DNA from: Escherichia coli
Lineage (GTDB): Bacteria > Pseudomonadota > Gammaproteobacteria > Enterobacterales > Enterobacteriaceae
Direction: 5' to 3' (one strand)
Length of the DNA stretch: 64,000 bases
Assembly: GCF_965641715.1 (NCBI RefSeq)
Contig: NZ_OZ282453.1
Of this stretch, positions 9,185 to 51,460 are shown one piece after another (the first letter of the stretch is position 1; each line of letters begins with the position of its first letter). Made by a program: the position numbers and the translations under genes. The notes under the pieces are model-generated. The model saw only the letters and a list, made by a program, of their open reading frames with translations. It was not told the origin of the DNA and did no database searches.

Positions 9185-9188
9185 GTGT

Positions 9189-9202
9189 TTTGTGAGAATA
9201 TT
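9189..9202. repeat. Satellite junction core, left copy (tttgtgagaatatt)
   Basis: First 7 bp identical to 24246..24252, 11/14 over 14 bp; same codon phase in terL. Confidence 0.55.
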
Positions 9203-9270
9203 TCAAGTTTTTTAAAATCACCTGTATATCAATCATTTAAAATGAAAAAACAGTCTTTATAAATCATCGA

Positions 9271-9291
9271 GCAATACACAGCGCAATACAC
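9271..9291. repeat. Tandem GCAATACAC motifs, candidate integrase arm-type sites (left arm)
   Basis: gcaatacacagcgcaatacac; near-identical copy at 24095..24115 beside int. Confidence 0.4.
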
Positions 9292-9480
9292 GTATCTGTA
9301 TTGTTTTAATGCTGATACACACCGTTTTTTGATACAGTGATTCGACCTACCATCGCGAAGCATTTTTTATTTCTTGTGTGTAACAATCTGACGAGGTGAG
9401 CACTCAAAGAGATAAGAGGCAGTAGAAATTTCGATCCCCCCCCTGAATGCAATTTTTCGTATATATATATACAAAACAGT

Positions 9481-9632
9481 GCGGGTTATGCGGGTTAGCG
9501 GGTTATCTTCGCGTGCTAAGTATTTTTTACTCTTTAATATCAATACGTTAAAAAACAACGTATCTAAATATCAGCCAGAATGTAACCCGCAAGACATTCA
9601 AAATAACCCGCAAACACCACTCAAATAACCCG
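9481..9632. repeat. Iteron cluster (3 direct GCGGGTTAT + 3 inverted copies around AT-rich spacer)
   Basis: Same 9-mer family as the cluster next to the primase gene. Confidence 0.55.
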
Positions 9633-9714
9633 CAAAAACATCCCTGAAAGTGGGTGCCGATAATACTGAAAATTTATTCCATTAAATGAGCATTGTCCTC
9701 TCTCATCCATTCCG

Positions 9715-11376
9715 TTACACACCATCAAACGTCGCAAGCCGCTCTTTGTGGCTGTCGCTCATATCGAATGCAAATTCCTCATGCTCTGCCTGGAATGTGC
9801 CAAACGCCATCAGCGCCGCAACGCTCGGGTCTATCTTGTTGGATGATTTTTTCTTGTTCGGCTTGATATTGGCGTTCGCGTCACTCTGCATCACAACATT
9901 ACTCATTGACCAGGCCAGCACCGGATCACCACGATGCACAATCACCTTCCGGTTAACAAAAACTTCGAACGATTTCGCCGCCGGACTGAAACGAAGGTAC
10001 GTTTGCGGGAACGGCTCCACCTCAAATCCCGCCCCCTGTAGCTGTGTTCTCAGGTGAGTGGCGTTCCATGTATCGAAGCCCACCAGCCTGATACTGAAAT
10101 TCTCTGCATCCACCATGATGTCATCACGGATACGGTCATAATCAATGCAGTCACCCGGTGTTGTGCGTATCCAGCCCGCCTTTACCCACTGGCGATAAAT
10201 GGCGCGGTTTTTATTGGCGGGGTTCTGTAACTGAAATTCCGGCAGATAGTGACGGGAAACCAGCATAATCTTTTTACCGACCGGAAAGGCATAGCACACG
10301 CTGGAAATATCGCTGGTTGATGATAAGTCCAGCCCCACGTAGCACTCCTGCCCGTATAAATCCGCCTCCGCGAACGTTCCGGCGCACTCCGCCCATGCAC
10401 CGTTACCCATCCACGGCGTAGCCCCCTGACACCAGATATTGAATCGCTTGGTGAGCATTTCCACCCACTGCGACGGAATACCCCGCGCTTTCTGGATGGT
10501 TGAGGCCAGTTTTTCACGATCGACGGAAACATCGATATTGGGATTCGCCTTTATCCACATCGCCGGATCGTCAACCTCGCTTTCATCATCCAGCTCGTAA
10601 ATCAGTACGAACATGGATTCGTTCACCTCTTCACCATCCAGTATCTGGCAGCAATAGTCGTAGTGTTGTTTACAGGCTGAAACAACGTTGCTCCCCGATG
10701 TGGTGATGGCAAATAATAACCCCTCCGGACGCGCCCCCATTCCCAGTTCAAGCGCGGAATAAACCCCGTTGTCAGGGTGCAGGTGATATTCATCTACAAT
10801 GGCAAGACTCGGGTTTGTACCTTCAATGGTTGCCGCTTTTGCTGCCAGTGGCTTTAACAGGCTGTTGGTTTTCGGGTGTATCACCTTGTGTGCCTGAATA
10901 TTTACCCGCTTTCGTAACGGTCGGGATAAAAGGCACATCTGACGCGCATCATCAAACACGATCCGCGCCTGATCACGACTCACGGCGGCGGTGTAAATAT
11001 CCTGCTGCCCGTTTTCCATAACCAGAAACCAGTTAGCCAGGATAGCGGCGACCGTGGATTTGGCATTTTTTCGCGGTACTTCAATGAATGCGCTGGTGTA
11101 TTTGCGCCGTCCGGTGGCCTTAACCTTAAAGCCCAGGATGCACGCAAAGGCGAACTGCTGCCACGGCTCCAGCTCAATGGGGCTACCGCGCATTGCGCCT
11201 TTTACGTGCGGACACACCCTGGAAAAGGCAATAAACTGCTCCACGACCTCCGGATCGAACGTGTAAAGGGGGTTTTCAAGGTCAGAAAAATACCGTTTAA
11301 CGGCCTGTTTCAGTCGTTTACAGGCCGTAATTTTGCCGTTTTTTACGCCTTCTGCGTACTCATGCCAGGCGGTCAA
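9715..11376 (-). CDS. Terminase large subunit (satellite, intact)
   Basis: 553 aa with ATPase motifs (VPRKNAKST, AIVDEYH) and C-terminal nuclease region. Confidence 0.85.
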   Translation of the reverse strand: MTAWHEYAEGVKNGKITACKRLKQAVKRYFSDLENPLYTFDPEVVEQFIAFSRVCPHVKGAMRGSPIELEPWQQFAFACILGFKVKATGRRKYTSAFIEVPRKNAKSTVAAILANWFLVMENGQQDIYTAAVSRDQARIVFDDARQMCLLSRPLRKRVNIQAHKVIHPKTNSLLKPLAAKAATIEGTNPSLAIVDEYHLHPDNGVYSALELGMGARPEGLLFAITTSGSNVVSACKQHYDYCCQILDGEEVNESMFVLIYELDDESEVDDPAMWIKANPNIDVSVDREKLASTIQKARGIPSQWVEMLTKRFNIWCQGATPWMGNGAWAECAGTFAEADLYGQECYVGLDLSSTSDISSVCYAFPVGKKIMLVSRHYLPEFQLQNPANKNRAIYRQWVKAGWIRTTPGDCIDYDRIRDDIMVDAENFSIRLVGFDTWNATHLRTQLQGAGFEVEPFPQTYLRFSPAAKSFEVFVNRKVIVHRGDPVLAWSMSNVVMQSDANANIKPNKKKSSNKIDPSVAALMAFGTFQAEHEEFAFDMSDSHKERLATFDGV

Positions 11377-11716
11377 GCTCGTCCTCTTCCTCTGTTTCCG
11401 GTGGATTTCTGCGGCGACTTACCGGGTCAAAACCCAGCAAAGAAGCCATTTTGATCATTATTCTTTCAGCGTCAGCCTTTGCGCTCAGGGCGGGGTTTCT
11501 GCTCTCGCTGCCCTGACTGTTAACAATGCTGAACCCGCGCGTGGCAAGGTCTTCGACGGCTTTGCGGTATATGGAGTAGTTAACGCAATACAGCTCCAGA
11601 TTGCTCCAGTCGGCGGGGGTAAGGTCTTCCCGTCCGGAAAGCTGGCGCGATTTTTCCTTCCACTGCCTGACCGCGATTTCATCCAGGTAAGCGGGGGCTT
11701 TTGGTGGTCTTGCCAT
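11360..11716 (-). CDS. Terminase small subunit (satellite)
   Basis: Starts MARPPKAPAYLDE..; overlaps terL start; ORF track extends to 11857. Confidence 0.7.
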   Translation of the reverse strand: MARPPKAPAYLDEIAVRQWKEKSRQLSGREDLTPADWSNLELYCVNYSIYRKAVEDLATRGFSIVNSQGSESRNPALSAKADAERIMIKMASLLGFDPVSRRRNPPETEEEDELDRLA

Positions 11717-12004
11717 GTTCTTTTTTCGCCCAATTATTTTCAAAAAAATTCCCGTGCACAAAAATTTGAGGAGGCGGTCGGTGTCCGGCAGGGACGGTTT
11801 TGTCCTGAAAACCTCCCCCCCCCCCTCTGACGGCCTCACCAGCGATTGCGAAAACATTCCATGACCTCGCGGTCACGGTCGGTTAATCGCTTCGCTGTGG
11901 TGCGTTCTGTGCGCCCTGTCCTGTTGGCTTTGTGCCCTGTCTCCTGTGTCTTCCATAAGTCACGCTGCCTTATCAGTCCACGTATCAGCCTGTTTTGCTC
12001 CTGT

Positions 12005-12445
12005 TCAGTCATCATCGCCATACATCCAGTCGTTACGGTGTGCCGCCCGTTCTTCCTGCTCGCGATACATACCCGCCTTACGGTTCGCTTTCGTGGCTGG
12101 ATCTTCCCGTGTTGTCTTACGGTTATGGCACGTCTGGCACAATGCCTGGTGGTTCCACTCAGGCCAGAAGAGAACATCACCGCCGCCATTGATGGGAATG
12201 ATGTGATCCACCACAAGAGCTGGCGTATAAATCCCCTTAGCCAGACAACGCACGCATAACGGATTTTTGCTCAGGTACAGGGCGCGGTATTTGTCCCACT
12301 GTCGGGAATACCCGCGCGCGCGGCGGTGTCCCCGTCTGGCATCCTCTGCACGCCATGCAGCCCGCCTGTGATCTTCGCACTTGCCGGACTTCACGCGCTT
12401 ATTACAGCCCGGCTCAGTGCATCGCCTTAATGGTTGCCACGGCAT
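12005..12445 (-). CDS. HNH endonuclease (packaging-associated)
   Basis: Cys-rich N-terminus and HNH motif (..DHIIPINGGG..H..C..CH). Confidence 0.8.
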   Translation of the reverse strand: MPWQPLRRCTEPGCNKRVKSGKCEDHRRAAWRAEDARRGHRRARGYSRQWDKYRALYLSKNPLCVRCLAKGIYTPALVVDHIIPINGGGDVLFWPEWNHQALCQTCHNRKTTREDPATKANRKAGMYREQEERAAHRNDWMYGDDD

Positions 12446-12744
12446 CAGTACACCCCTACATCACGATAAACCGACCAGAGCGCAGAAATAGCCATAGGCA
12501 GTTCAGACTGCTCCACAGGTGAAACCGCTTCCCTGTTCTCGTACAGGAAAGCGATGTACATCAGGCAACCAACACGTATTGCCGGGGTAAATTCCAGCCC
12601 GTCTTCAAAACGTTTCCCGATATGCTTCTGGCAGGCTTCCAGCGCCGCATCGGTATACATTTTCAGAAGTTCGCCCTCACCTGAGAAGTCATCAAGGCGA
12701 AGATGTGCCCTGACTTCATCAGGTGTAATTTTTTCTTCACTCAT
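12445..12744 (-). CDS. gp6-like head-tail connector (satellite)
   Basis: MSEEKITPDEVRAHLRLDD.. N-terminus; internal ATG, ORF track start 12825. Confidence 0.55.
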   Translation of the reverse strand: MSEEKITPDEVRAHLRLDDFSGEGELLKMYTDAALEACQKHIGKRFEDGLEFTPAIRVGCLMYIAFLYENREAVSPVEQSELPMAISALWSVYRDVGVY

Positions 12745-13951
12745 CTTTTTCACCTTTAATTTCCACCGTCTGCTTCCATGCCTGGCTGAACTCGTCACCA
12801 CCTTCACGCGGCGGCATCCCCTCACGTTCGCGGGCTTCGTTCGGATTCATGATCCCGTTCTTAATCCCTTTCTCATACGTGGCGTAACGCTCGGTTGGAG
12901 TAGCGCGCAGTAAATCGGCTGAATCAAACTCAACCAGATAACGGGTACCAGGTATGGGAGAAGCCACCAGCAAAGCGGCCTTAATTTGCTGTTCGAAGTT
13001 CGCCAGCCATGGGCGCATTGTCATGGTCAGAAACGCGCGGCTTGCCTCACTGAAATTGCTGTAGGTGCTGTTGCTGTATTCCTGAAGAAAAATCGGCGAC
13101 ACGTTGAACATCCGGGCGATGTCTTCAATGGAGAAGCGACGGGAGGCCAGCCATTCTGCATCCTGGTTACTCATCCCCAGTTGCTTGTAATCCATACCCC
13201 CTTCAAGGATTGGCGTTTTTCCGGCATTTTTCGCCCCCTTGTAGCGTTCCAGGGCGTCTAATGCCTGTTTACCTTTCACGCCGTCCAGCCATTCGCCTGA
13301 CGTGATAATCCCTGCCGCCATCATGCCATCTTTCATAATGCTGGCTCCGTGACGCTGTTGAGCAAGGCCAAGCCCCAGCGCCTCACGGCAAATCGTGACA
13401 GGGGAGCGCCCCAGAAAGCCATCATCCGAGGCATAGCGGAGATGCAGAACTTCTTCCTGCAAATACGTGCGCACCGTTCCTGTATAGGGTTCGGTGATGG
13501 TATAGCGGTATTTGTGTGCGCCAGTGCGTTCCGGTACAACACACCCCGGCGCATAAGGATGAAGTGATTTTGGCTGACCGTCCCGCCCCCACTCAATAAC
13601 CGCATAGGCGTTACCGTTCAGCAGGCAGTGACGCATCATTGTGCGTTTAAACTGGTAAGGTGTCTGGCACGAATTAGGCTGCTCATTCAGCAGAATATCG
13701 ACCGGGTGACTGTCCAGCCATTCCCGCGCCTCCCTGCCCTTGTCATTGCGTACCAGATACAGATAACACGGCATCGTGGCCACCGCCTCAGCGATGACAG
13801 AAACCGCGTTCATCACAGCAGGCAATGATTCAGCCGTCCCGGCAGAAACATATTCTCCGGATCCGGTATTCGGTACGCCGGACAGCGCCAGAAAATCATC
13901 AATGGACAGGTTACGCAGATCGCTTTTTTTACGACTAAAAGGCCACCACAT
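12737..13951 (-). CDS. Portal protein (satellite, HK97 family)
   Basis: Portal-like sequence; ATG at 13951 abuts protease stop; ORF track start 14041. Confidence 0.8.
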   Translation of the reverse strand: MWWPFSRKKSDLRNLSIDDFLALSGVPNTGSGEYVSAGTAESLPAVMNAVSVIAEAVATMPCYLYLVRNDKGREAREWLDSHPVDILLNEQPNSCQTPYQFKRTMMRHCLLNGNAYAVIEWGRDGQPKSLHPYAPGCVVPERTGAHKYRYTITEPYTGTVRTYLQEEVLHLRYASDDGFLGRSPVTICREALGLGLAQQRHGASIMKDGMMAAGIITSGEWLDGVKGKQALDALERYKGAKNAGKTPILEGGMDYKQLGMSNQDAEWLASRRFSIEDIARMFNVSPIFLQEYSNSTYSNFSEASRAFLTMTMRPWLANFEQQIKAALLVASPIPGTRYLVEFDSADLLRATPTERYATYEKGIKNGIMNPNEAREREGMPPREGGDEFSQAWKQTVEIKGEKDE

Positions 13952-13952
13952 A

Positions 13953-14513
13953 TCACAACCCCGCCAGTTCAGCCCAGCGATGACGATTATTTCCTGTCGG
14001 GCGTAATTCAGGGTGCTGTGCAAACAACGAACGGTGGGCAATCTCCACGCCGGATTCGGGATAAGCAGGCATCGACGTTATCGTGATTTCACGGAGTTCT
14101 GCGGCGGTAACAGTGCGCAGATACGGTTTTTGCGCGATATTCCACTCTTCGCATAATGCGCGAAAGCCAAAGCTCATTCCTGTAATGTCGCCACGCTCCA
14201 CCAGCGTAAGCACATCTTTTCCAAGCTGGGTATCAGGCGGTGTCAGTTCAAAACGTAGCCCGGTGTTGTCCTCAGTCAGTACCAGTGTTCCGGATTTGGT
14301 GCGCCCCAGCAGTCGGGTATAGTCATGCTCATACAGGCAGCGCACATCATTACCCGCCGCCAGATAGTCAGCAAAAGCCCCCGGCGTGAACTGTTCGCGG
14401 AATTCGTCCCAGATAATTTCTGAAAGGCTGTTCCAGCGAACGGCATACCCCACCAGCTTTTTATTGCTGGCGGTCAGTTCAGATGTGCGGATTTCAAAAT
14501 CGGTGTTTTTCAT
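13953..14513 (-). CDS. Prohead protease (satellite)
   Basis: 186 aa, ..GYAVRWNS.. region matching HK97 protease pattern. Confidence 0.8.
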   Translation of the reverse strand: MKNTDFEIRTSELTASNKKLVGYAVRWNSLSEIIWDEFREQFTPGAFADYLAAGNDVRCLYEHDYTRLLGRTKSGTLVLTEDNTGLRFELTPPDTQLGKDVLTLVERGDITGMSFGFRALCEEWNIAQKPYLRTVTAAELREITITSMPAYPESGVEIAHRSLFAQHPELRPTGNNRHRWAELAGL

Positions 14514-14567
14514 CGGTGTACTCCATAAAGCTGAAAAAGGAGGCCGCAGCCTCCTCCTTACTCATGA

Positions 14568-15737
14568 CTAGCCAGCTTTCATTTCCAGAATTTTGATGGC
14601 GTTTGAATCCACCACACCACCGCCCAGATATTTATCCGTGTGGACCTTGTAGAATCCGGGCTCAGTAATGTTGTCCGGTCGGGTGCGAATCCCTGTTACA
14701 TGATCAACGATGAAATAACCACGACTGAAATCGCCAACCGCTAGCGGTGCTTTTCCTGCGCCGATGTCCGGCATGGACTCCAGGCAGAAAACAGGACGAC
14801 CAAGCAACATATCCGGCGCACCTTCTTTAAGGCTGTCGCGCCAGATATAATCGCCATTCTCATTTTTCAGCTTCTGTAGTGTCCCTGCCGTGCCCGAGTT
14901 CATCACCCAGACGGCATTTTTGCGGTATTTCGCTTTCAGCTTGTAGAGAATGTCGATCAGTTCGTCCGCTGTAATGGCGGTTCCACTTGCCGCTACCACT
15001 TTTTCAATGGTGCCAAAAGCGCGGGTTTTGTCACTGGTCGCCGCACGGGTGTAAGCCATGAAGCCTTTCGGCTTGCCGTTACCGTCGCCATTAACAAAAT
15101 CATCCTCTTCGGTGCTGGCGAACGTGTCGGCAATTTCGGAGGATAACCAGCCCAGAATATCCACCTCTGAAAAATCCAGGATTTCCTGCGTGGTTTTCGG
15201 GTAGGCGTAGATCGGATTCAGCTTGATGGTTACACGTTCAATTTTCGGGGTGTTGGTTTCACTACGTGCGCAGCCTTCTGTGCCTCGTCCTACAGTTGCG
15301 CCGCCAGTGGAAACCAGTTTCTGAAACTCATTTGATTTTGCGGTCTTCACGGTCGCGATCACGCGCATAACACTGTCATCCTGTAGCTGGCGCATGACTT
15401 CGCGATCAAGCTCAGGAATTACGGTATATCCGCCATCCCTGCCGCTGTCAGTGCTGGTGGACAGTGATCGCACATCTCCGGTTACGATGTAGTTACGCAA
15501 TTCATCAGATGATAATTTCTGGATGCCCGTTCCTGGCTTGCTGCGTTCTTCATCAGCCACAGACTCGAGGCGGTAAATTTCTGTGTCGAGGGAATCGGCT
15601 TTTGCACGCAGTTCATCAAACTGTTTGCCCTCGTCATCGTTCAGGCTGCGGTTTTCACTGTCGGCTTTTTCCAGCAGGGATCGCATCTGGTTTTTCAGGG
15701 CGGTTTTTTGCTGGCGGAGTTCGATTAATTTCTTCAT
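14568..15737 (-). CDS. Major capsid protein (satellite, HK97 fold)
   Basis: 389 aa, coiled N-terminal segment, homologous architecture to 5176..6381. Confidence 0.85.
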   Translation of the reverse strand: MKKLIELRQQKTALKNQMRSLLEKADSENRSLNDDEGKQFDELRAKADSLDTEIYRLESVADEERSKPGTGIQKLSSDELRNYIVTGDVRSLSTSTDSGRDGGYTVIPELDREVMRQLQDDSVMRVIATVKTAKSNEFQKLVSTGGATVGRGTEGCARSETNTPKIERVTIKLNPIYAYPKTTQEILDFSEVDILGWLSSEIADTFASTEEDDFVNGDGNGKPKGFMAYTRAATSDKTRAFGTIEKVVAASGTAITADELIDILYKLKAKYRKNAVWVMNSGTAGTLQKLKNENGDYIWRDSLKEGAPDMLLGRPVFCLESMPDIGAGKAPLAVGDFSRGYFIVDHVTGIRTRPDNITEPGFYKVHTDKYLGGGVVDSNAIKILEMKAG

Positions 15738-15974
15738 GAAGGTTTTCTCGTATTGGTTAAGATTCAGGACGTGAAACCAACACGGAGGGAGCGCCGCCCG
15801 ACACTCTCGGCATCTCGCAGATCAACCCGGCATCGCGCAGGGGGTCAGGCGGCATTGTGGCGGCTCACGTCTGAGTGCCACACGCCAACATATACATAAA
15901 AATCAGTATGTAAACATCAGCCAGAATCACCGAACAACCTGGAACAACCACGAACAAATAATTTACAAAACCTG

Positions 15975-16000
15975 AAAAAAAGACCTGGAGAAAATCCAGG
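15975..16000 (-). terminator. Intrinsic terminator upstream of satellite capsid operon
   Basis: Hairpin cctgga/tccagg followed by T-run on minus strand, directly after ORF 16012..16260. Confidence 0.5.
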
Positions 16001-16011
16001 CCTTTATCGCT

Positions 16012-16260
16012 TTATTGTTTCACTGGATCCCGCATTCTGCGTCTTATTTTCCACAGATATTCGATCATCGCTTCCACCTGCTCACGATTGGTTGCGAAAA
16101 TTTCCCCGGTCAGTGAGCTGCGCAGAAAATCATGATGATCCACAACAAACAACGCATCGGAAGAAAGCAGACGGCGATATTTTTTTGCTGTCGTGGTTTC
16201 CAGATCATCAAAACCATGAAACTTTTTATGTTGCTGGACTTCTTCAAATGTCACTGGCAT
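16012..16260 (-). CDS. Hypothetical protein
   Basis: 82 aa ORF, 4-nt overlap with upstream ProQ-like gene. Confidence 0.4.
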   Translation of the reverse strand: MPVTFEEVQQHKKFHGFDDLETTTAKKYRRLLSSDALFVVDHHDFLRSSLTGEIFATNREQVEAMIEYLWKIRRRMRDPVKQ

Positions 16261-16793
16261 GTATCCCCCTTTGCCGCCCGGCGCTGGCGCTTGTGCTTCT
16301 CATTCAGCGCCATCAGCCGCGTTTCTGCCTCCTGCTGTTCCTGTGGTGTCACTTCCCCACATGGCTGGCCTTTCAGGTCGTATCGTACCCCACCAGCAAC
16401 CAGGGCGCGGTAATAGCGCGGAGACTGCGCATAAGATGCCAGCGTCGCACGTAATGCCCCCGGCCCGAATGCCAGCCCCCTGACGGCGAGATCCTGCATC
16501 AGGTCGTCGAATATCCCCACCTTAAGCGGCTTCGGTGCTTCCCTGTTGAATAAGTCAGGCCACATCTCAGTGAGGCGGTTAACGCGCCTGCGGTTTTTGC
16601 GCTGGCGTTTGGTCATATGCCGCCACGGTGTCACCCCTGTGGGCTGCCCTTTGCGGCTCTGCTGTGCGTTCTGATTGCCGGGTATCACTTTATGCGCCGA
16701 TGTGGTTTTATCCCGCTCTTGCGCCGCCTGCGTCGTTTTCTGCGGCGTGCCGTAAATGCCTTTCGGTTTTCGGTTAATGGTCAGCTTTGTCAT
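16251..16793 (-). CDS. ProQ/FinO-domain RNA-binding protein with basic N-terminal extension
   Basis: ..PLKVGIFDDL..RATLASYAQSPRYYRAL..RYDLKGQPCGEV.. parallels ProQ N-terminal domain. Confidence 0.6.
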   Translation of the reverse strand: MTKLTINRKPKGIYGTPQKTTQAAQERDKTTSAHKVIPGNQNAQQSRKGQPTGVTPWRHMTKRQRKNRRRVNRLTEMWPDLFNREAPKPLKVGIFDDLMQDLAVRGLAFGPGALRATLASYAQSPRYYRALVAGGVRYDLKGQPCGEVTPQEQQEAETRLMALNEKHKRQRRAAKGDTCQ

Positions 16794-16957
16794 GCCTTCC
16801 CCTGTAATTACTCTGTTCGCTGTTGTGAATTAAAACGGTATGTTATCCCCGTACAGGTCATCGTGCTGGCCTGTCTGTTGTTTTGCCCTGTTCAGTGCGT
16901 CAGTGGCCTGCCCCTGTTGGCCTTTTTTGCCGCCCGGTCGCGCCGTTCTCGCACTGA

Positions 16958-17254
16958 TTACGCTGTCTGCGATGACCTGCCAGCCCTGCCGCGTTTCGCC
17001 GTTCTGCCCTGTCCACTGCTTACCTGCATGTTACCCGCCACGCTCACCAGTTCGCCTTTGCGGTGTTTTGCCAGTGCGTCGGCCTGTCTGCCAAACGCCA
17101 GGACGGATAACCACATCGTCGCCGTTCCGTCATCTGCCTGGCTGCATGGCAGGGGAACCGCCATACTCGCCATCGCCATTTGTGTTCCCTTGCTGGTGGT
17201 CTTTAACTGCGGGTCAGCCACCAGCCGCCCGTAAGCCGCTATCTGTGCTGTCAT
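16958..17254 (-). CDS. SSB-like OB-fold protein (tentative)
   Basis: 98 aa, ..GRLVADPQLKTT..TATMWLSVLAFGRQA..KGELVSVAG.. resembles short phage SSBs. Confidence 0.35.
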   Translation of the reverse strand: MTAQIAAYGRLVADPQLKTTSKGTQMAMASMAVPLPCSQADDGTATMWLSVLAFGRQADALAKHRKGELVSVAGNMQVSSGQGRTAKRGRAGRSSQTA

Positions 17255-17318
17255 GCTGTCTGCTCTCCGGTTTTAACGTTGATGGTTACGCTTGTTTACA
17301 CCCTTACGGTGAAATTCT

Positions 17319-17441
17319 GCGGGTTATAATCGCACTTTTGCGGGTTATAACTGCCGTTTTGCGGGTTACGTGCGGGTTATTGATTTCCTTTTTATTCATA
17401 CAGTTAATGCACTTATATACATGATAACCCGCATAACCCGC
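17319..17441. repeat. Iteron cluster, candidate satellite origin (4 direct GCGGGTTAT + 2 inverted, AT-rich centre)
   Basis: Immediately downstream of primase/helicase gene. Confidence 0.6.
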
Positions 17442-17464
17442 AACTTTTCACCTCACACAGGGGG

Positions 17465-19588
17465 TTAATCTTCTGCCTCAGGCTGGAACATCAGCACGTA
17501 AAAAACATGCTGCTTCCCCCCAATTTTGCCGAGCGCCTTTTTCTTGTAACGGCGATCGTTACCCGCTTCCAGCATTCCGGCAGCACTCAACGCGCGGGCA
17601 AAGTGAGACGGATTAAATCCCTGTGCTATCTCACCCTCAAATACATGCGGGAACGTGTAAAAACGGAACTCGTCATCTTCGTTTCTGATACTCCCCTTTC
17701 TGTATCCGGCAAGTTCTTTAATCGATAAATCACGCTCGTCGGTATTGGGCCACGGAAGGTATCTGCTGAATCCGAACGACGCTAAAAAAGCTTCTGCCTG
17801 TTCAACCATCTGTTTAAATTCCCTGTTACCCGTGCCGAACTCCTTCACCCAGGCATTAAAATTATGCTGTATGGCATCGCGGCATTCCTGCTCATCCCAG
17901 CCAGTAACATGACCTGAAAGCACAAGCGCGGCCTCCAGTATGGCAAATCGCTCCCCCACACGGTGAACCTGTTCGCCGTAGCTCTCCGGTATCAGGTTGC
18001 GCCACCGCTCACGGCATGTCCTTACCGTGTCCTTTGCCTCCTGCTGGTGTTCTGCCAGCCATTTAACCCACTCACGACCCGCCGCCCCGTGATTTTCTGT
18101 CCAGGCATCCTTTAACGCGTCTGCGTGCGCCTTTCCGGTGCTGTATTCGTGAAATTGCGTGGCTTTTTCCATCGGAACGTTAAGCAGGCGGACAAGCTGC
18201 CCCGCTTTGACTTTTATCCCCTCCGTTTTGAGGAATGTCTCAACGTCCATTTCTCCGGTGCTGATTGCCACCGTGCGCCAGTGTTTGATCTCCCTGTTGC
18301 CGCCGTCCTTCGCCCCCTGTAATTTCCCCGAACCGTTAAACAGCGTATAGGCTGACGTGGACACCTCCCGCGCGTTTCCGGCCTGGCCTATTTCATCCAG
18401 GGGTAAAAGCCCGTCATTGTGTGCCTCTGCTTCGTTGGCGATACCTAACGCTGTGCCGTACCAGGTCAGCCGCTGCGCGTCCGGCTCTCCCCATAAACTT
18501 GATGCGATGTTCTGTGTGGTGGTTTTCCCTGCCGATGACTGTTCGAAAAGATGTACCCCGAAGCCGTCAGCGCCCACCAGCCCGATTAATGGTGCGGATA
18601 ACGATACCGCCACACCCAGCATCATGGACGGATTACCACCAGCCAGCCGCGCAACGGTATCGCGCCAGCCCTCCGCCGTTCCTGCCACGGAATAGCCATT
18701 AACAGCAGCCGTTTTTCCGGTAAACAGGACTGGCTTTTCGCAATCACCAATGACCGAACCGTCCGGCATGATGTACGCGCCAAAATGCCAGCCCGTTGTT
18801 GTGCTTAACTGCCATTCCTCATGGCTTCCGCTTAACTGCATCCAGTCAGCCAGGATAGCCCTGTATTTACCGTTGGTTGTTACGTTCAGTCCGTGGTCTT
18901 TCAGCAACCGCCAGCCGTCACGGTCGCCAATGCCACCGCACGGAACCGCCATTGTGATGACTTCATGGTTTGCTAATTTTTTCCAGCGCATCACGCGGTA
19001 ATGCTCTTTACCGATTGTCCCCGTTCCCAGTAGTTCAAGCGGGGAACATAACCACGTCTCAGGCCGGATAATTTCGCCTGACTGCTTATCCACTTTTGGC
19101 GTTACCCAGAAAACACCATCGGCGCGACTTTCAACGCGGGGCTTTAATTCATCATCGCCCTGGATTTCTGTGATTTTTTTCTTTAAGGGCAACACCAGAC
19201 TTTCCCCGCGCTCGTATTCGTCTTTGAGGCGAGGCAACTGGTCGGATAAATCCGCCGGGCTGATGTCAGTTATCCCCGCGTATTCGTATACGGTCTTCAC
19301 GCCAGCCACAGCCAGCAACGTGACGATCTGTGTAAGGCTACGTTCAGTGATGTGCCCTGCGCGGTAAACACGCACACACTGACGGCTATCATCAATAATT
19401 TGATAACCGGTAATATCTTTCAGGTGTTCATCTGACAGAACGACAGGCGGCACATTGTCGGCGGCAATATGCTTACCTGCCCATTCCTGCCACTCTTTCG
19501 CATGGCTCCACGCATCACTACCCGCAAAGATGATAACCTCCGTCATTTTGTCGGCTGGCTGGTGCTTTAAGTTTGGTGCGCGCTTCAT
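17465..19588 (-). CDS. Primase/helicase-type replication protein
   Basis: 707 aa with Walker A (SSAGKTT), P4-alpha/PICI pri-rep-like position next to iterons. Confidence 0.65.
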   Translation of the reverse strand: MKRAPNLKHQPADKMTEVIIFAGSDAWSHAKEWQEWAGKHIAADNVPPVVLSDEHLKDITGYQIIDDSRQCVRVYRAGHITERSLTQIVTLLAVAGVKTVYEYAGITDISPADLSDQLPRLKDEYERGESLVLPLKKKITEIQGDDELKPRVESRADGVFWVTPKVDKQSGEIIRPETWLCSPLELLGTGTIGKEHYRVMRWKKLANHEVITMAVPCGGIGDRDGWRLLKDHGLNVTTNGKYRAILADWMQLSGSHEEWQLSTTTGWHFGAYIMPDGSVIGDCEKPVLFTGKTAAVNGYSVAGTAEGWRDTVARLAGGNPSMMLGVAVSLSAPLIGLVGADGFGVHLFEQSSAGKTTTQNIASSLWGEPDAQRLTWYGTALGIANEAEAHNDGLLPLDEIGQAGNAREVSTSAYTLFNGSGKLQGAKDGGNREIKHWRTVAISTGEMDVETFLKTEGIKVKAGQLVRLLNVPMEKATQFHEYSTGKAHADALKDAWTENHGAAGREWVKWLAEHQQEAKDTVRTCRERWRNLIPESYGEQVHRVGERFAILEAALVLSGHVTGWDEQECRDAIQHNFNAWVKEFGTGNREFKQMVEQAEAFLASFGFSRYLPWPNTDERDLSIKELAGYRKGSIRNEDDEFRFYTFPHVFEGEIAQGFNPSHFARALSAAGMLEAGNDRRYKKKALGKIGGKQHVFYVLMFQPEAED

Positions 19589-19899
19589 TTTGCCTTTCCC
19601 CGTTCACGAATAATTTCACGTACTGCCTTAATGCGTTCCATTCCTGTAACGCGCATGATTCTGTCGATGTCGCTTAATTCTGCTGGTGGTGCTTTACTTA
19701 CCAAGGTGAACTCCCTGTCAAAGCGCATATGTGACGACACGCAGGGATGCGCATAACCTTCGCGGATATAGGTCACACGAAAATCATCGACGGTTTTGAT
19801 CGTTATCGTGCTGCCGTATTTATCCTGGAAAATATCGCCGGGGCGGATTTCAGGCCGAGCGGGGCCGCTGGCAGTAAAGCCAGAATTTTTCTTTTTCAT
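19585..19899 (-). CDS. Hypothetical protein
   Basis: 104 aa, 4-nt overlap with primase gene. Confidence 0.4.
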   Translation of the reverse strand: MKKKNSGFTASGPARPEIRPGDIFQDKYGSTITIKTVDDFRVTYIREGYAHPCVSSHMRFDREFTLVSKAPPAELSDIDRIMRVTGMERIKAVREIIRERGKAK

Positions 19900-19904
19900 G
19901 TTTT

Positions 19905-20153
19905 TTACTCCAGAGGCAGCTTTTTAGCGGCGAGCTCAATATCAGATGTCAGAGAAACCTGTGTATTTGCCAGGTCTAACAACAAAGAAATAAGAATTTC
20001 TTCTCTGCTATCGGATTTATCGGTGCTAAGGCTGTTCATCCACATATTGACGACTTCCCTGATTTTTTTCGCAGAGTGCAGGGCTTCAAATGCCAGGTCT
20101 TCAATATCATGTTTATTTCGCATAATCGCCCCCGCCATTTTCACAATCAGCAA
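19905..20153 (-). CDS. Hypothetical protein
   Basis: 82 aa ORF in early leftward operon. Confidence 0.3.
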   Translation of the reverse strand: MLIVKMAGAIMRNKHDIEDLAFEALHSAKKIREVVNMWMNSLSTDKSDSREEILISLLLDLANTQVSLTSDIELAAKKLPLE

Positions 20154-20358
20154 TCAGGATGGCTTTTGCCTCATTCAGCGCCATATCAGCACTAAATTGC
20201 ATAACAGCCAGTGAGTGAGGAACGAAAGCCCCGGCATATTCTGTTTCGCTGGTGGCGTGCTTATGCGCCTTGTCTGCGATAACAGAAATATCAATCAGCG
20301 CGTGCATCAGCGTTTTGATGGCTTCGGCGGCTGCGTCCGGACGGGTGTTATTGCACAT
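20113..20358 (-). CDS. Hypothetical protein
   Basis: 81 aa ORF, first gene of leftward operon. Confidence 0.3.
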   Translation of the reverse strand: MCNNTRPDAAAEAIKTLMHALIDISVIADKAHKHATSETEYAGAFVPHSLAVMQFSADMALNEAKAILIADCENGGGDYAK

Positions 20359-20651
20359 GGCGCACCTCCTGACGAATACGGGCAGCGAATACCATCACGC
20401 AGCCAGCCGGGGATTGCTGGCGTGCTTCCTGTTCGCTAGTGGCCTCAATGGTAATCACACGCGGTTGTGCCGTGCTCAGGGCGATAAAACGCCAGATGTA
20501 TTTATTCAGGTTGTGCGAGTCCCGCCCTTGCGGGTGTGTGGTATGATTTAACATAGCTACCTCGATAATCTTGCTATCGTTGGTGGTTAGAAGCCCGGTT
20601 AGTGTTAGCGCACTGCCGGGTTTCGTCGTTTGTATTTCAATAAAACCATTG

Positions 20652-20729
20652 GTGTGTTTCATGTTATTTTGGAGTGAAACACACGTCAAGCCTTTTTTGT
20701 ATTTCTTTTTTGTGTATACTGAAACACAC
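20652..20729. promoter_or_regulatory. Divergent promoter/operator region with three TGAAACACAC half-sites
   Basis: Perfect 10-bp inverted repeat GTGTGTTTCA..TGAAACACAC plus third copy overlapping a TATACT -10. Confidence 0.45.
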
Positions 20730-20750
20730 CAAATTTGAGGAGTTTCAGTT

Positions 20751-21056
20751 ATGGCGACTACCAACAAAAACGCTAAATCACAATTGACCACCGTCAGAGT
20801 CCCCCACGATGTTATGGAGGGCATGGAATCCGTAAAACTGGACGGCGAAAGCAACGCCGGATTCATAGTAACCGCCATGCGCGGTGAGATCGCCCGCCGC
20901 CAGGCAGAAGGAAGCGGAGAAAATCCCCTGGTTTCTTCGCTCGATGCACTGGCGCAGGTGGAAAAAATTGGAGTCAAGGCTGCCGAGGAGATCGGGCAAC
21001 TCGTCACCGTCGCGCGTGAAGAACTCCAGCGACGCAAGGTCAAAGAGCAGGAATAG
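20751..21056 (+). CDS. Ribbon-helix-helix-like regulator (tentative)
   Basis: GAGGAG RBS; N-terminal TTVRVPHDVMEGMESV..AGFIVTAMRGEI pattern. Confidence 0.45.
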   Translation: MATTNKNAKSQLTTVRVPHDVMEGMESVKLDGESNAGFIVTAMRGEIARRQAEGSGENPLVSSLDALAQVEKIGVKAAEEIGQLVTVAREELQRRKVKEQE

Positions 21057-21113
21057 CCACTATCAGCGCCATAGTTTGAGGAACGCAGGCGCATTGCTTT
21101 ACAGGACAGCACC

Positions 21114-21293
21114 ATGAGCGACACAGAATCAACCAAAACACCATCACCAACTCGTAAGAGACGACGCAAAAATATAGCGCATGAACATGAATCAGAAAGA
21201 TTCGCACCTTGTTCGTTTGCTCTTGAGAAATTCCTTAAAGAGCACAGGAAAAAGCTCTCGTTGCAAACCTTGGAACGAACCAAATCTGACTGA
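21114..21293 (+). CDS. Small basic protein (59 aa)
   Basis: ORF below track cutoff, followed by two intrinsic terminators. Confidence 0.25.
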   Translation: MSDTESTKTPSPTRKRRRKNIAHEHESERFAPCSFALEKFLKEHRKKLSLQTLERTKSD

Positions 21294-21359
21294 TCACATT
21301 GCCCACCAGCCGCAAATGTGGCATTGTTGGTGATGCTTTTGTTTTCCCTTGTTCCCACT

Positions 21360-21388
21360 GGCGACCCTTTTGCGGTCGCCTTTGTTTT
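21360..21388 (+). terminator. Intrinsic terminator
   Basis: ggcgaccc tttt gcggtcgcc followed by T-rich run. Confidence 0.45.
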
Positions 21389-21483
21389 GCCTGTTATCCG
21401 GCAATAGTGGCGCTTCGTCACCTGTCTGATATAATTCCACAGCTTATATTCATTTTTTGCGCAGTAGGTTAATTGTTCGCAAG

Positions 21484-21515
21484 GGCGCTCCGGCAACGGG
21501 GCGCTTTTTGTTTTT
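21484..21515 (+). terminator. Intrinsic terminator with GCAA tetraloop
   Basis: gcgctccg GCAA cggggcgc then tttttgttttt. Confidence 0.4.
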
Positions 21516-21673
21516 ACCCACCAGCACAATAAAAATCTTCATTTTCCATTTTTGTAAAATTTCATGCTTTCCGGACGACTGGTCATATGTCATTTTTTAG
21601 CAGAAGATTTTGCCTTGCTGGTGGGTAGCTTCCCGGTCAACACGATGTACCGTATAATCAACACCGCGTGTGG

Positions 21674-22252
21674 TTACTGAATACGCTCACCAAAGTAAAA
21701 CTCAGGCTGGTATTCACGTATCAGCCTTTTTTCTTCTTCCTCCAGCTCACGCTTTTTGCGCTTACATGCCTGTAGCTCCCTCCCCTTCTCACTGGCACTT
21801 ATCTGGTATTGCTCTTTGCGGCGGGAAAAATCCTGTAATGCGCCCCACGGGATACCATAAGCCCCCGTTTTTCTGATACCCGGTATCACATTTCTGAATA
21901 CCCAGTTACTGAAACGATGAGCAAATGTGCCAGGCGTCGTTGCTTTGCGGCTGCGGGCTATTAGTTTGTAGAAACCTGACTCGGAGATAATGCTCATATT
22001 CTGATTTCCTCCGGGGGTGTAAGTTAAATTTACTCCCTTTTCGTCATCATCAAGCATCTGCAACGCCGTACGCGAATTGGTCAATTCCAGCGCAGCACAA
22101 ACATCCTTTGCAACAAACCACGGATCGCCGTTTAGATACACCACACGAACATCCACGCCATCAAAGCGCAGAACGACCAGATCACGAATATCACAGAATT
22201 TTTTCACATGACGTGCGTCACCCTTGCCCGTCACGGCAATATTTTTATTCAT
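21674..22252 (-). CDS. Bro-N domain protein (antirepressor-like)
   Basis: ..FDGVDVRVVYLNGDPWFVAKDVCAALE.. matches Bro-N consensus. Confidence 0.7.
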   Translation of the reverse strand: MNKNIAVTGKGDARHVKKFCDIRDLVVLRFDGVDVRVVYLNGDPWFVAKDVCAALELTNSRTALQMLDDDEKGVNLTYTPGGNQNMSIISESGFYKLIARSRKATTPGTFAHRFSNWVFRNVIPGIRKTGAYGIPWGALQDFSRRKEQYQISASEKGRELQACKRKKRELEEEEKRLIREYQPEFYFGERIQ

Positions 22253-22309
22253 TGCTTTTTACCTCACATACAAAAAACCCCGCATTGCGTGGTGCGGGGT
22301 TGTCGGTAA

Positions 22310-22588
22310 TTACTTATTGGCGTTTTTGTATGGGCTGTTTACTTCCTTTACTCCTGGCGGATGCATAACCCACCAGAGCACATCAGAGAGCAACCAGGAA
22401 ACAGACACTTTCCCTAAATGAGCACGAGCAGGAAATGCTCCCTCCTGTTCAAGTACCCAACGTCTGCTTCTTGAAAGCCCGGTACGATTGGCACACTCAT
22501 GTTCGCGTATACGGCGATCATACGGTTCGCCATGATCTTTCAGAATCTGAATGCGTTCTTCGGGTGTAGGATAAATAAATTTTTGCAT
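22310..22588 (-). CDS. AlpA-family regulator / excisionase-like
   Basis: HECANRTGLSRSRRWVLEQEGAFP..VSWLLSDVLWWV; internal ATG, ORF track start 22618 is TTG. Confidence 0.6.
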   Translation of the reverse strand: MQKFIYPTPEERIQILKDHGEPYDRRIREHECANRTGLSRSRRWVLEQEGAFPARAHLGKVSVSWLLSDVLWWVMHPPGVKEVNSPYKNANK

Positions 22589-22651
22589 AAAAATATCACC
22601 TATAAAAAAACCCGCCAAAAGACGGGTTGATTATATCTCATTTAATTTAGC

Positions 22652-22873
22652 TCAGGGTTTCCATTCACCTTTTACCCATTCCAGCACCTCAGATAAGCGC
22701 CAGACTTTTGTTTGTGGGCCAATACATATTTTTCGTGGAAATTTTCCTTCCTTTTCAAGTAACGATCTGTGTCTCCTGCCAAGAGCGGTTAACCATGCAC
22801 ATTCATCCTCCTTAATCATCCTGTCGATTGTTTCATCATTTTCAAGTTCTTCACGCGTAACTATTTGAATCAT
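22652..22873 (-). CDS. AlpA-family regulator / excisionase-like
   Basis: DECAWLTALGRRHRSLLEKEGKFP..VWRLSEVLEWV; start uncertain (22885, 22873 or 22819). Confidence 0.6.
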   Translation of the reverse strand: MIQIVTREELENDETIDRMIKEDECAWLTALGRRHRSLLEKEGKFPRKICIGPQTKVWRLSEVLEWVKGEWKP

Positions 22874-24074
22874 TACTGTCACCACTAATTTGCTTATTCA
22901 GATAGTCGTACCACCAGTTCATAGCTTCTTTTTTTCTGTCCATATACTGGCTTCTGTTATAAACCCCGGCAACACCGCCTAATGTGTGCCCAAGCAACTG
23001 TTCAACCACATTATGTTCAAAACCATGATCACTTAGTTTTGTGGCAAACACTCTTCGCATATCATGCGCCGTCCATTTCTCCGAGTGTTTCATCCTTTTC
23101 CATGTCTTACCGATAGTTACGCTTGCCGTACACTGACGCATATCAAACCCAATCACATTTTCTTTGTTACCTGTTATTTTTTTTAACGTAACTAACCAGT
23201 TAAACATGCCATCAGGAATCGGTCTGATTATTTCCCTGCCATTTTTGCTATGATCAGCGGGAACGCGCCATAATTTCTTATCAAAATCCCACTCTACCCA
23301 GGACGACAGTAATACTTCTGACAGTCGACAACCAAAAACTACCAGGAAACGTAAAATAATTCGGTTTTCATATGATAATTCGTGATTGTCATAATCAGTA
23401 TTAATACTTCGCCATAAATCTCTGATTTCATCATCTGTTAAAACCCTGCTTCTTCGCGCAGACTTTTTTCCCACATCACAGACCTCAAGATCATCAATTT
23501 CATGACTAATCGCGTATTTTCTTACCCTACAAAATTTAAGCGCCTGTTTTGATATACGCAACAAAGCTCCGGCCTGTACAGGTGCTACTTTTTTTATTTT
23601 GTCAAAACACTTAATCCACATAGATATAGAGCAATCACTAAGTGGTACATGACCAATCACCGGATAAATATGTTTACCAAAGCACTGCCTGATATGTTCT
23701 GCTCCCCTACGCTTATCCATTGCATAATTATCAAGCCAGTATTCAAGTGCCTCACGAACGGTAACAGGTTGCAAGGTGGCTTCCCGTTCAATTTTTATCT
23801 GAATCCGTGGATCTCTGCCCTCCGCAAGCCAGGTTCGACACTGATCGCGCATCTCTCTCGCTGATTTGAGACTCAGATCAGGATATTTTCCAAGTGTCAG
23901 CCAGATGGGCGCGGTTCCCCTTCCCGCCAGTCTGTAAAAGAAAACAAAACTAACACATCCGTATTTACTGACCCGTACCGAAAGCCCGTTACCATCAGCG
24001 ATGGTTTCCTGCCTCTCACTCCTGCGCCCAAGCAGGGAACGAAGTTTTTTATCGCTCAGTTTGTTTAGCGCCAT
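22851..24074 (-). CDS. Tyrosine integrase, P4 type (satellite)
   Basis: MALNKLSDKKLRSL.. N-terminus, C-terminal HxxR..Y catalytic region; ORF track start 24110. Confidence 0.85.
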   Translation of the reverse strand: MALNKLSDKKLRSLLGRRSERQETIADGNGLSVRVSKYGCVSFVFFYRLAGRGTAPIWLTLGKYPDLSLKSAREMRDQCRTWLAEGRDPRIQIKIEREATLQPVTVREALEYWLDNYAMDKRRGAEHIRQCFGKHIYPVIGHVPLSDCSISMWIKCFDKIKKVAPVQAGALLRISKQALKFCRVRKYAISHEIDDLEVCDVGKKSARRSRVLTDDEIRDLWRSINTDYDNHELSYENRIILRFLVVFGCRLSEVLLSSWVEWDFDKKLWRVPADHSKNGREIIRPIPDGMFNWLVTLKKITGNKENVIGFDMRQCTASVTIGKTWKRMKHSEKWTAHDMRRVFATKLSDHGFEHNVVEQLLGHTLGGVAGVYNRSQYMDRKKEAMNWWYDYLNKQISGDSNDSNSYA

Positions 24075-24094
24075 GTGATTTATAACCCGTTTTT

Positions 24095-24115
24095 GCAATA
24101 CACAGTGCAATACAC
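24095..24115. repeat. Tandem GCAATACAC motifs, candidate integrase arm-type sites (right arm)
   Basis: gcaatacacagtgcaatacac just upstream of int; copy at 9271..9291. Confidence 0.4.
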
Positions 24116-24245
24116 AAATGATGAAAACAGCCAGAACCTTCCAGAAAAAACAAAAACGACGAACAAGAAAAAATCTTTTTCTTTCATTTGGTTACTAAAA
24201 AAATCAGGACAGGTCGCACTGTTGTTACGGCGTGATGTTACTTTC

Positions 24246-24259
24246 TTTGTGAAAAAATT
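24246..24259. repeat. Satellite junction core, right copy (tttgtgaaaaaatt)
   Basis: First 7 bp identical to 9189..9195; encodes ..FTK of the terL N-terminal fragment. Confidence 0.55.
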
Positions 24260-48061: not shown

Positions 48062-51310
<3,249 letters not shown>

Positions 51311-51460
51311 TCAATCGGCTAAATTGCCATGTTTTATCATCAATCTTGCCGCCTGATCTTAATCTGAAAAATCATCCAATACAGACAGATACCCATTACA
51401 CCTCGGGTCATAACCCGCAGGATCAACCGCATGTAAATTAAAAAAGAGCGTGTTGTCCTG

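Follow-up and report, generated by a model that had tools for sequence, protein, structure and literature searches.

A probable two-unit replication origin, with its second unit displaced to the element end, in a capsid-forming satellite of Escherichia coli

Two repeat clusters in a capsid-forming satellite

The 64-kb stretch of Escherichia coli DNA analyzed here (contig NZ_OZ282453.1; "the window" is this whole stretch) carries a capsid-forming phage-inducible chromosomal island (cf-PICI, a type of PICI), inserted within the terL gene of a resident prophage. The element occupies positions ~9190-24258 on the minus strand, or ~15.06 kb as measured by its attachment-site (att) cores, and includes two clusters of a short repeat: cluster A, near its left end, and cluster B, beside the gene of a 707-aa protein here called Rep. 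Both clusters are considered below as candidate units of a replication origin (units A and B), and the features that matter for this question are the following:

9460..9633: unit A (cluster A), made of a (TA)6 run, three direct copies, a spacer and three inverted copies; most likely a displaced second origin unit
9460-9471: (TA)6 run, left of the tight direct triplet and outside the spacer; candidate unwinding element
9481 (ending in T), 9490 (ending in G) and 9498 (ending in T): direct copies of cluster A, a tight triplet
9507-9582: spacer of cluster A, 76 bp, 70% AT
9538..9550, plus strand: match to the integration host factor (IHF) consensus, TATCAATACGTTA = WATCAANNNNTTR, inside the unit A spacer (a consensus match only)
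9583 (ending in C), 9604 and 9626: inverted copies of cluster A, spacing 21-22
17319..17441: unit B (cluster B), four direct GCGGGTTA[T/C] copies and two inverted copies; putative rep-proximal origin unit
17319, 17340, 17361 (ending in C) and 17372: direct copies of cluster B, spacing 21, 21 and 11
17381-17424: AT core of cluster B, 44 bp, 75% AT
17425 and 17434: inverted copies of cluster B, spacing 9
17465..19588, minus strand: Rep, a predicted 707-aa DUF927 initiator-helicase (annotations say primase/helicase)
17468..17791, minus strand: C-terminal ~105-110 residues of Rep, putative iteron-recognition domain

Across both strands of the window, the 9-mer GCGGGTTAT has 12 exact matches against 0.45 expected (standard deviation 0.72), a number reached by none of 100 dinucleotide-preserving shuffles, and 9 of the 12 lie inside the two clusters. 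Its 8-mer core GCGGGTTA is found 20 times (1.8 expected), with 12 copies in clusters A and B and the remaining eight scattered singly within coding sequence, without common flanks. Four GCGGGTTA copies at 48946-51418 were examined and set aside, being isolated, coding and unrelated in their flanks. An earlier reading of the same DNA (hereafter the original prediction) had proposed two clusters of this 9-mer and a motif count as the check, and the enrichment measured here bears it out. Its placement of the clusters also holds, with cluster B immediately downstream of the 707-aa gene (it begins 24 bp past the stop codon, at 17465) and cluster A downstream of the satellite terL at the element's left end (82 bp past the terL stop, at 9715, and ~280 bp from the left att core). 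The copy numbers it gave, 3+3 for cluster A and 4+2 for cluster B, are right if the ninth base is left free (i.e., if GCGGGTTA[C/G] variants are counted too), but the exact 9-mer tally is 2+2 and 3+2. Similarly, cluster A starts at 9481 as proposed, but its last copy ends at 9633 rather than 9632, and the (TA)6 run, which had been placed inside the spacer, lies outside it, beside the direct triplet.

In both clusters the iteron sets face inwards, toward an AT-rich core, and the AT content of these cores (70% and 75%) compares with 50% for the whole element. The least stable 25-mer duplexes of the entire 15-kb element are at 9451 (the TA run) and 9521 (the spacer), both of them in unit A. The two clusters are separated by 7.7 kb along the integrated element and, on the 15.06-kb circle formed by excision, by 7.1 kb in the opposite direction. 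Neither cluster matched an RNA family when the entire element was scanned against Rfam.

The Rep protein

Rep had been labeled a primase in the original prediction, and this label is not supported by closer searches. Pfam returned DUF927 alone (aa 168-435), the PHROG 1139 "DNA primase" profile aligned only over its positions 285-894 of 895, and the PDB matches were to SaPI-type and Cch-type helicases (8tch, "Pathogenicity island protein," 3e-15; Cch helicase 5dgk; SaPI, Staphylococcus aureus pathogenicity island), with no primase domain detected by any of these Pfam, PHROG and PDB searches. Given a lone DUF927 domain, helicase structures as PDB matches and a partial PHROG profile, we refer to Rep as an initiator-helicase and not as a primase, and its sequence indicates a relationship to the SaPI-type and Cch-type self-loading helicases. 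The C-terminal 150 residues were modeled with AlphaFold2 from a 15-sequence alignment, which gave an unusable prediction (pLDDT 45), and a PDB profile search with the same alignment returned no meaningful match.

Iteron words follow the Rep C-terminus

To compare origins across this Rep family, IMG/VR was scanned with the Rep protein, which yielded 80 loci with Rep identities of 60-100% (individual loci are designated below by L numbers); for each locus, the commonest 8-mer in the 450 bp after rep was retrieved and then mapped along the locus. Six iteron words were found, distributed by Rep lineage and each used in both units: GCGGGTTA (Rep identity to the window Rep 83-100%), GGGACAAC (71-81%), GTGGGTTA (67-68%), TGAACCAA (61-68%), GTGGTTCA (one locus, L084) and GGGATAAG (60%, L081). 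Copy number, spacing and orientation are preserved across the six word classes.

The most informative comparison is with L046, a locus of the GGGACAAC class. Over aa 120-600, its Rep and that of the window share 95-100% identity, which drops to 55, 37 and 15% across the final three 40-column blocks of the alignment, corresponding to the C-terminal ~110 residues. At the DNA level, the two loci are 94% identical up to codon ~600, homology breaks over the Rep C-terminus and origin, and identity is back to 92.5% just before the SSB gene. This break suggests a swapped cassette in which a single coding segment, the Rep C-terminus, travels with the iterons. More broadly, the Rep C-termini most alike are those of the GCGGGTTA and GTGGGTTA classes on the one hand, and those of the GGGACAAC and GGGATAAG classes on the other, which parallels the similarity of the words. 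We take this as strong evidence, of a comparative kind, for recognition of the iterons in both units by the C-terminal domain of Rep.

Adjacent and split layouts among relatives

Cluster A was searched across 5426 complete E. coli genomes, with the context fetched for a sample of the matches, and was present in 302 of them; from a 60-row sample of these matches, we estimate that about half of the 302 carriers have the displaced layout seen in the window. Among the 80 IMG/VR loci, unit B lies directly after the rep stop in every locus with sequence there. The position of unit A is more variable. In five further islands (L001, L004, L007, L008, L090), a DUF927 rep with its unit B is separated by 8-10.6 kb from a distal unit A at the far island end, and these split islands differ in cargo or packaging modules and in integration sites. 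The split layout was seen only in the GCGGGTTA lineage, where it is found in 15 IMG/VR loci as well as in the window and these five islands. Conversely, a homologue of unit A, spacer included, lies directly beside unit B in L005, L009 and L030-L044, with a homology that extends, in L005 and L009, over both the spacer and the TA run. The relative orientation of A and B is identical in adjacent and split layouts.

Almost all loci share one architecture. Reading from the rep stop, two tight copies are followed by the AT core, four copies spaced 11, 21 and 21 bp, a linker copy, two copies 21 bp apart, an AT-rich spacer, three tight copies (9 bp) and a tail. The normal state of this Rep family thus seems to be a two-unit origin with one word in both units. 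No sampled element holds both an adjacent and a distal unit A, and the junction between unit B and the SSB gene in split elements is that of elements with unit B only. Overall, cluster A is most likely the second unit of a family-wide two-unit origin, moved to the element end in one E. coli lineage.

The tail, GTTTTG(TA)nCGAAAAA in the direction of rep, follows the tight triplet in all six iteron classes, whatever the iteron (9441-9480 in the window, on a minus-strand reading; about +300 to +350 after rep in L030-L089). The exchangeable cassette of Rep C-terminus and origin ends, on its downstream side, at this tail, which may be an unwinding element. This same conservation could be taken to mean that unit A is mainly a Rep-controlled promoter or operator, all the more since the triplet and tail of the adjacent layout stand 20-40 bp before the ribosome-binding site and start codon of the next gene. 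Such a promoter would, in the split layout, fire across att and, in the excised circle, toward int. Split elements have no gene before att, and no sigma-70 consensus was found at unit A in the window or L009 (promoter and terminator scans of both units and of L009 gave nothing at the (TA)n tail). A mainly promoter function therefore seems very unlikely, although a promoter role would be compatible with an origin role.

Several other features were noted in these relatives. Where the two units adjoin, the linker iteron pairs in inverted orientation with the first iteron of unit A (TAACCCGCAGAAAAAACCCCGTTTGCGGGTTA) and a T run comes next (L009 12155-12190; L005 about 19049-19080); this hairpin could also terminate the transcription of rep. 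At its far end (10270-10680), the counterpart of the unit A position in the window, L005 has ~5 copies of another repeat (..ATCAACCAGTTACCGCGCC..), of which L006 has 1-2 copies. Finally, L007 carries three large hypothetical genes (~2.5, 2.1 and 2.8 kb; 13209-20556) between its replication module and unit A, which may be a defence system.

Conservation of the displaced unit

Displaced units can be compared with one another to ask which of their positions tolerate change. Over 16 distinct split-type copies of unit A, whose overall identity to the window goes down to 82%, only 3 of 53 iteron columns are variable, against 62 of 143 other columns (Fisher p = 1.2e-7): the displaced iterons are under purifying selection. 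When 23 distinct A units from both layouts are aligned, no change is seen in the iterons, in the TA run or in a short motif of the spacer, the rest of which varies. The TATCAA..TT core of the IHF-consensus match is likewise invariant in split-type copies, and matches are also present in the GGGACAAC class. This conservation, the unstable DNA, the IHF-consensus match, the lack of any element with two A units and the shared B-to-SSB junction together point to a functional unit A.

A probable two-unit origin

We consider it probable that both clusters are iteron arrays for the DUF927 initiator-helicase of the satellite, and jointly form its replication origin. The original prediction had also read them as a pair, and the relatives agree with a single initiator system: the two units stand side by side after rep, and their words change jointly with the Rep C-terminus.

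A number of points weigh on the other side. First, the cassette moves as a block, so that the joint change of word in A and B is partly hitch-hiking; the conversion of all ~12 copies for each word, with spacing kept across deep divergence, would nonetheless be hard to explain without selection for Rep binding. Second, 9-11 GCGGGTTA-class loci, as well as L083, have a unit B and no unit A in the 4-10 kb downstream, so that unit A may be dispensable, or some of these contigs may end short. Third, one island (L003, a PICI of E. coli 85.0412 between clpS and cspD) has an intact unit A, with all six GCGGGTTA copies at 12056-12208, but an unrelated Rep (annotated "DNA primase family protein"), and its own origin (17020-17260) uses GGTAGACAG iterons. 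Finally, no published binding or replication data for this Rep family were found in the literature searchable here.

The island L003 contradicts the idea that a distal cluster is always paired with the Rep of its own element, and we keep it as an exception. It implies that unit A can persist without its cognate Rep, whether because it is a mosaic relic of recent origin or because it acts in trans. The simplest explanation is that the rep module was recently exchanged, since L003 sits at the integration site of L008 and L009 and carries a unit A near-identical to those of DUF927 elements; the orphan unit may also let a co-resident DUF927 satellite act in trans.

Two alternatives draw on these same observations. 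Elements with unit B only would fit a non-essential modulator, and unit A, which shares the origin word and sits kilobases off, could in principle be a control locus that titrates Rep or handcuffs with unit B, limiting or timing replication. We regard this as unlikely, as unit A is not a one-way array and has instead the anatomy of an origin, with inward-facing sets, an AT-rich spacer, an IHF-consensus match and the least stable DNA of the element, and as burst replication after induction leaves little obvious need for copy-number limits. Alternatively, PICIs are mosaic, and both L003 and the B-only elements could indicate that unit A is a relic without function, brought in with the att-proximal end module when modules were shuffled between PICIs. 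To this we give little credence: hardly any iteron column varies among the 16 displaced copies (3 of 53) although their spacers differ by up to 18%, the displaced layout occurs in about half of the 302 carriers by the sample-based estimate and at several integration sites, and no sampled element holds two copies of unit A.

Insertion of the satellite and its gene content

The closest annotated relative of the element is the E. coli EC416 locus (L001), 98.5% identical, in which the genes are ordered on the minus strand as integrase, regulators, Icd-like, DUF4222, DUF927 protein, SSB, ProQ/FinO-like, major capsid, prohead protease, portal, connector, HNH, terS and terL. Assignment to the cf-PICIs relies on this gene set (L001 annotation and PHROG matches), the size of ~15 kb and the lack of tail and lysis genes. 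The ends of the element and the genes next to them are as follows:

8459-9184/9203: 3' fragment of the prophage terL
9188..9202: left att core TTTTGTGAGAATATT, at the junction with the 3' fragment of the prophage terL, aligned to intact phage terL
9271..9291: two tandem copies of GCAATACAC; with 24095-24115, a candidate integrase arm-type site, in a word unlike the iteron
9715..11376, minus strand: satellite terL, the last gene before unit A (PHROG 9 at 6e-180; L001 annotation)
22851..24110, minus strand: tyrosine integrase gene (PHROG 1 at 2e-57; L001 annotation)
24246..24259: right att core TTTGTGAAAAAATT, at the junction with the 5' fragment of the prophage terL

The crossover core is ~14 bp long, as placed by alignment with intact phage terL, and the prophage terL fragments on either side sum to a full-length gene, so that the gene would be whole again after a precise excision. 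As long as it stays integrated, the satellite should prevent the prophage from packaging its own DNA, and the prophage head and tail genes are left downstream. The same terL junction is found in 33 of the 5426 complete E. coli genomes, and the uninterrupted target in about 890. The GCAATACAC tandems, one close to each end of the satellite, probably serve as arm-type sites for the integrase (one copy of the tandem at 24095-24115 overlaps the int start), and PICIs at other integration sites (L003-L006) have two copies of AACTACACC at the equivalent place.

As unit A follows terL by 82 bp and the att core is only ~280 bp off, a packaging site (cos or pac) or an arm site for integrase or excisionase could be considered, the former having been put forward in the original prediction. 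We find this highly improbable. In L005, L009 and most other lineages, the homologue of unit A adjoins rep, a long way from both att and terS/terL; unit A is found alongside three packaging modules unrelated to one another, and also where there is none; its word tracks the Rep C-terminus and not Int or TerS; and the candidate arm repeats use another word, GCAATACAC. The true lambda-type cos of L009 is also located elsewhere, and the cos-like DNA between unit A and att in L003 and L004 (ACGGGGCGG) was rejected after a lambda-type cosN search, which found no cos at that place in the window.

A few peculiarities of this strain and its relatives can be added. The satellite SSB gene (16958-17254, minus strand) has 98 open codons against 141 in L001, probably through a frameshift or truncation in this strain, and the SSB gene of L008 is likewise frameshifted. 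L001 carries an IS1414 transposase gene (21127-22335) between its YlcI-like and BRO-N genes; no open reading frame of the window matches it at the corresponding place, and the genes beyond are offset by ~0.9 kb. A sub-threshold Rfam match to symR (SymR antitoxin RNA; 33.6 bits, where the gathering score is 61; E = 0.004) at 20555-20627 on the plus strand, beside the Icd-like gene, is probably due to chance.

Proposed working of the origin and implications

Under the two-unit origin that we favor, unit B would have stayed beside rep when unit A relocated past the last gene, terL. Following induction and excision, the Rep C-terminal domain would bind the iterons of both units, and the helicase would assemble around an AT-rich core and unwind it. 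As unit A combines the least stable DNA of the element with an IHF-consensus site, it would probably serve as a second start site or as an enhancer, and in the latter case would contact unit B by looping. It is tempting to speculate that the displaced unit still works in the origin, either through two near-opposite firing sites on the 15-kb circle or through Rep-mediated long-range looping, yet we hold this more specific proposal to be possible rather than likely. If true, a solution similar to the ori/crr pair of satellite P4 would have been reached independently by an unrelated initiator family. Moreover, unit A stands at the very edge of the integrated element, so that a working unit firing before excision could copy flanking DNA, in this case the head and tail genes of the prophage whose terL is interrupted.

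More generally, PICI origins are treated as one compact unit beside rep, and the DUF927-Rep family suggests instead a conserved two-unit origin. Natural relatives have the second unit next to the first, at 7.7 kb from it, missing altogether, or alone beside a foreign Rep, and these variants make its role (starting, enhancing or controlling replication, and acting at a distance) directly testable. The cassette of Rep C-terminus and origin also maps specificity determinants, which would help predict cross-replication and interference among co-resident satellites.

Comparison with known systems

The origin described for PICIs has an AT-rich region between two sets of iterons, placed directly 3' of rep, and a rep-ori fragment of EcCICFT073 drives plasmid replication (PMC6092414). 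Cluster B, already read as a typical origin in the original prediction, matches this layout (PMC6092414) and would be an ordinary PICI origin unit: like PICI and SaPI origins, it lies directly 3' of rep, has iterons around an AT core, and uses a word that appears specific to the Rep lineage, as each of six Rep C-terminal types goes with one of six words. Both units have iterons on either side of an AT-rich core, but only unit B is itself immediately 3' of rep, this position being shared by unit A through its homologues in L005, L009 and L030-L044. Unlike in PICI and SaPI origins, this Rep family has two units, and the second is 7.7 kb off in the window lineage. A two-unit or split PICI origin was not described in the literature searched, although most subscription journals were outside this search and such an absence is weak evidence.

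As for the element itself, its gene set and order, its size of ~15 kb and its lack of tail and lysis genes are those of EcCIEDL933-type cf-PICIs, a type to which L005, an O157:H7 locus with a cf-PICI gene set, presumably belongs. The origin units are adjacent in L005, however, and the window element sits in a prophage terL rather than at a chromosomal site.

In satellite P4, ori and crr are two clusters of sites for the alpha protein, ~4.5 kb apart, and crr is required in cis. The resemblance to P4 put forward in the original prediction is real for the layout: both are small satellites with two initiator clusters of the same word kilobases apart (here 9481-9633 and 17319-17441, across the 7.7-kb gap) and a helicase initiator with a C-terminal specificity domain, putative in our case. 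It does not extend to the molecules, as the initiator here is a DUF927 protein without a detected primase domain and without a match to the P4 origin-binding domain (1ka8), and the iteron is GCGGGTTAT rather than TGTTCACC, the P4 word. As a positive control, the Rep C-terminus of L006, a cf-PICI with nearly the same packaging genes, matches the 1ka8 domain of P4 alpha at 3e-24. This island has a compact origin of TGTTCACC iterons at 18800-19040, with 19051-20865 alongside, and is the only one in which TGTTCACC iterons were seen. Two more differences from P4 are that the ancestral state here is adjacent and that B-only relatives exist, the latter a hint that the distal unit may not be required, unlike crr. 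Overall, at least three unrelated rep/ori modules appear to circulate on this satellite backbone.

Lastly, the incA locus of P1 and the incC locus of F are extra iteron arrays outside the minimal origin, oriented one way and acting negatively by titration or handcuffing. Unit A is similar in being an extra array of initiator sites outside what would be a minimal origin, but differs in its inward-facing sets, AT-rich core, IHF-consensus site and (TA)n tract, a combination that makes it look like an origin unit.

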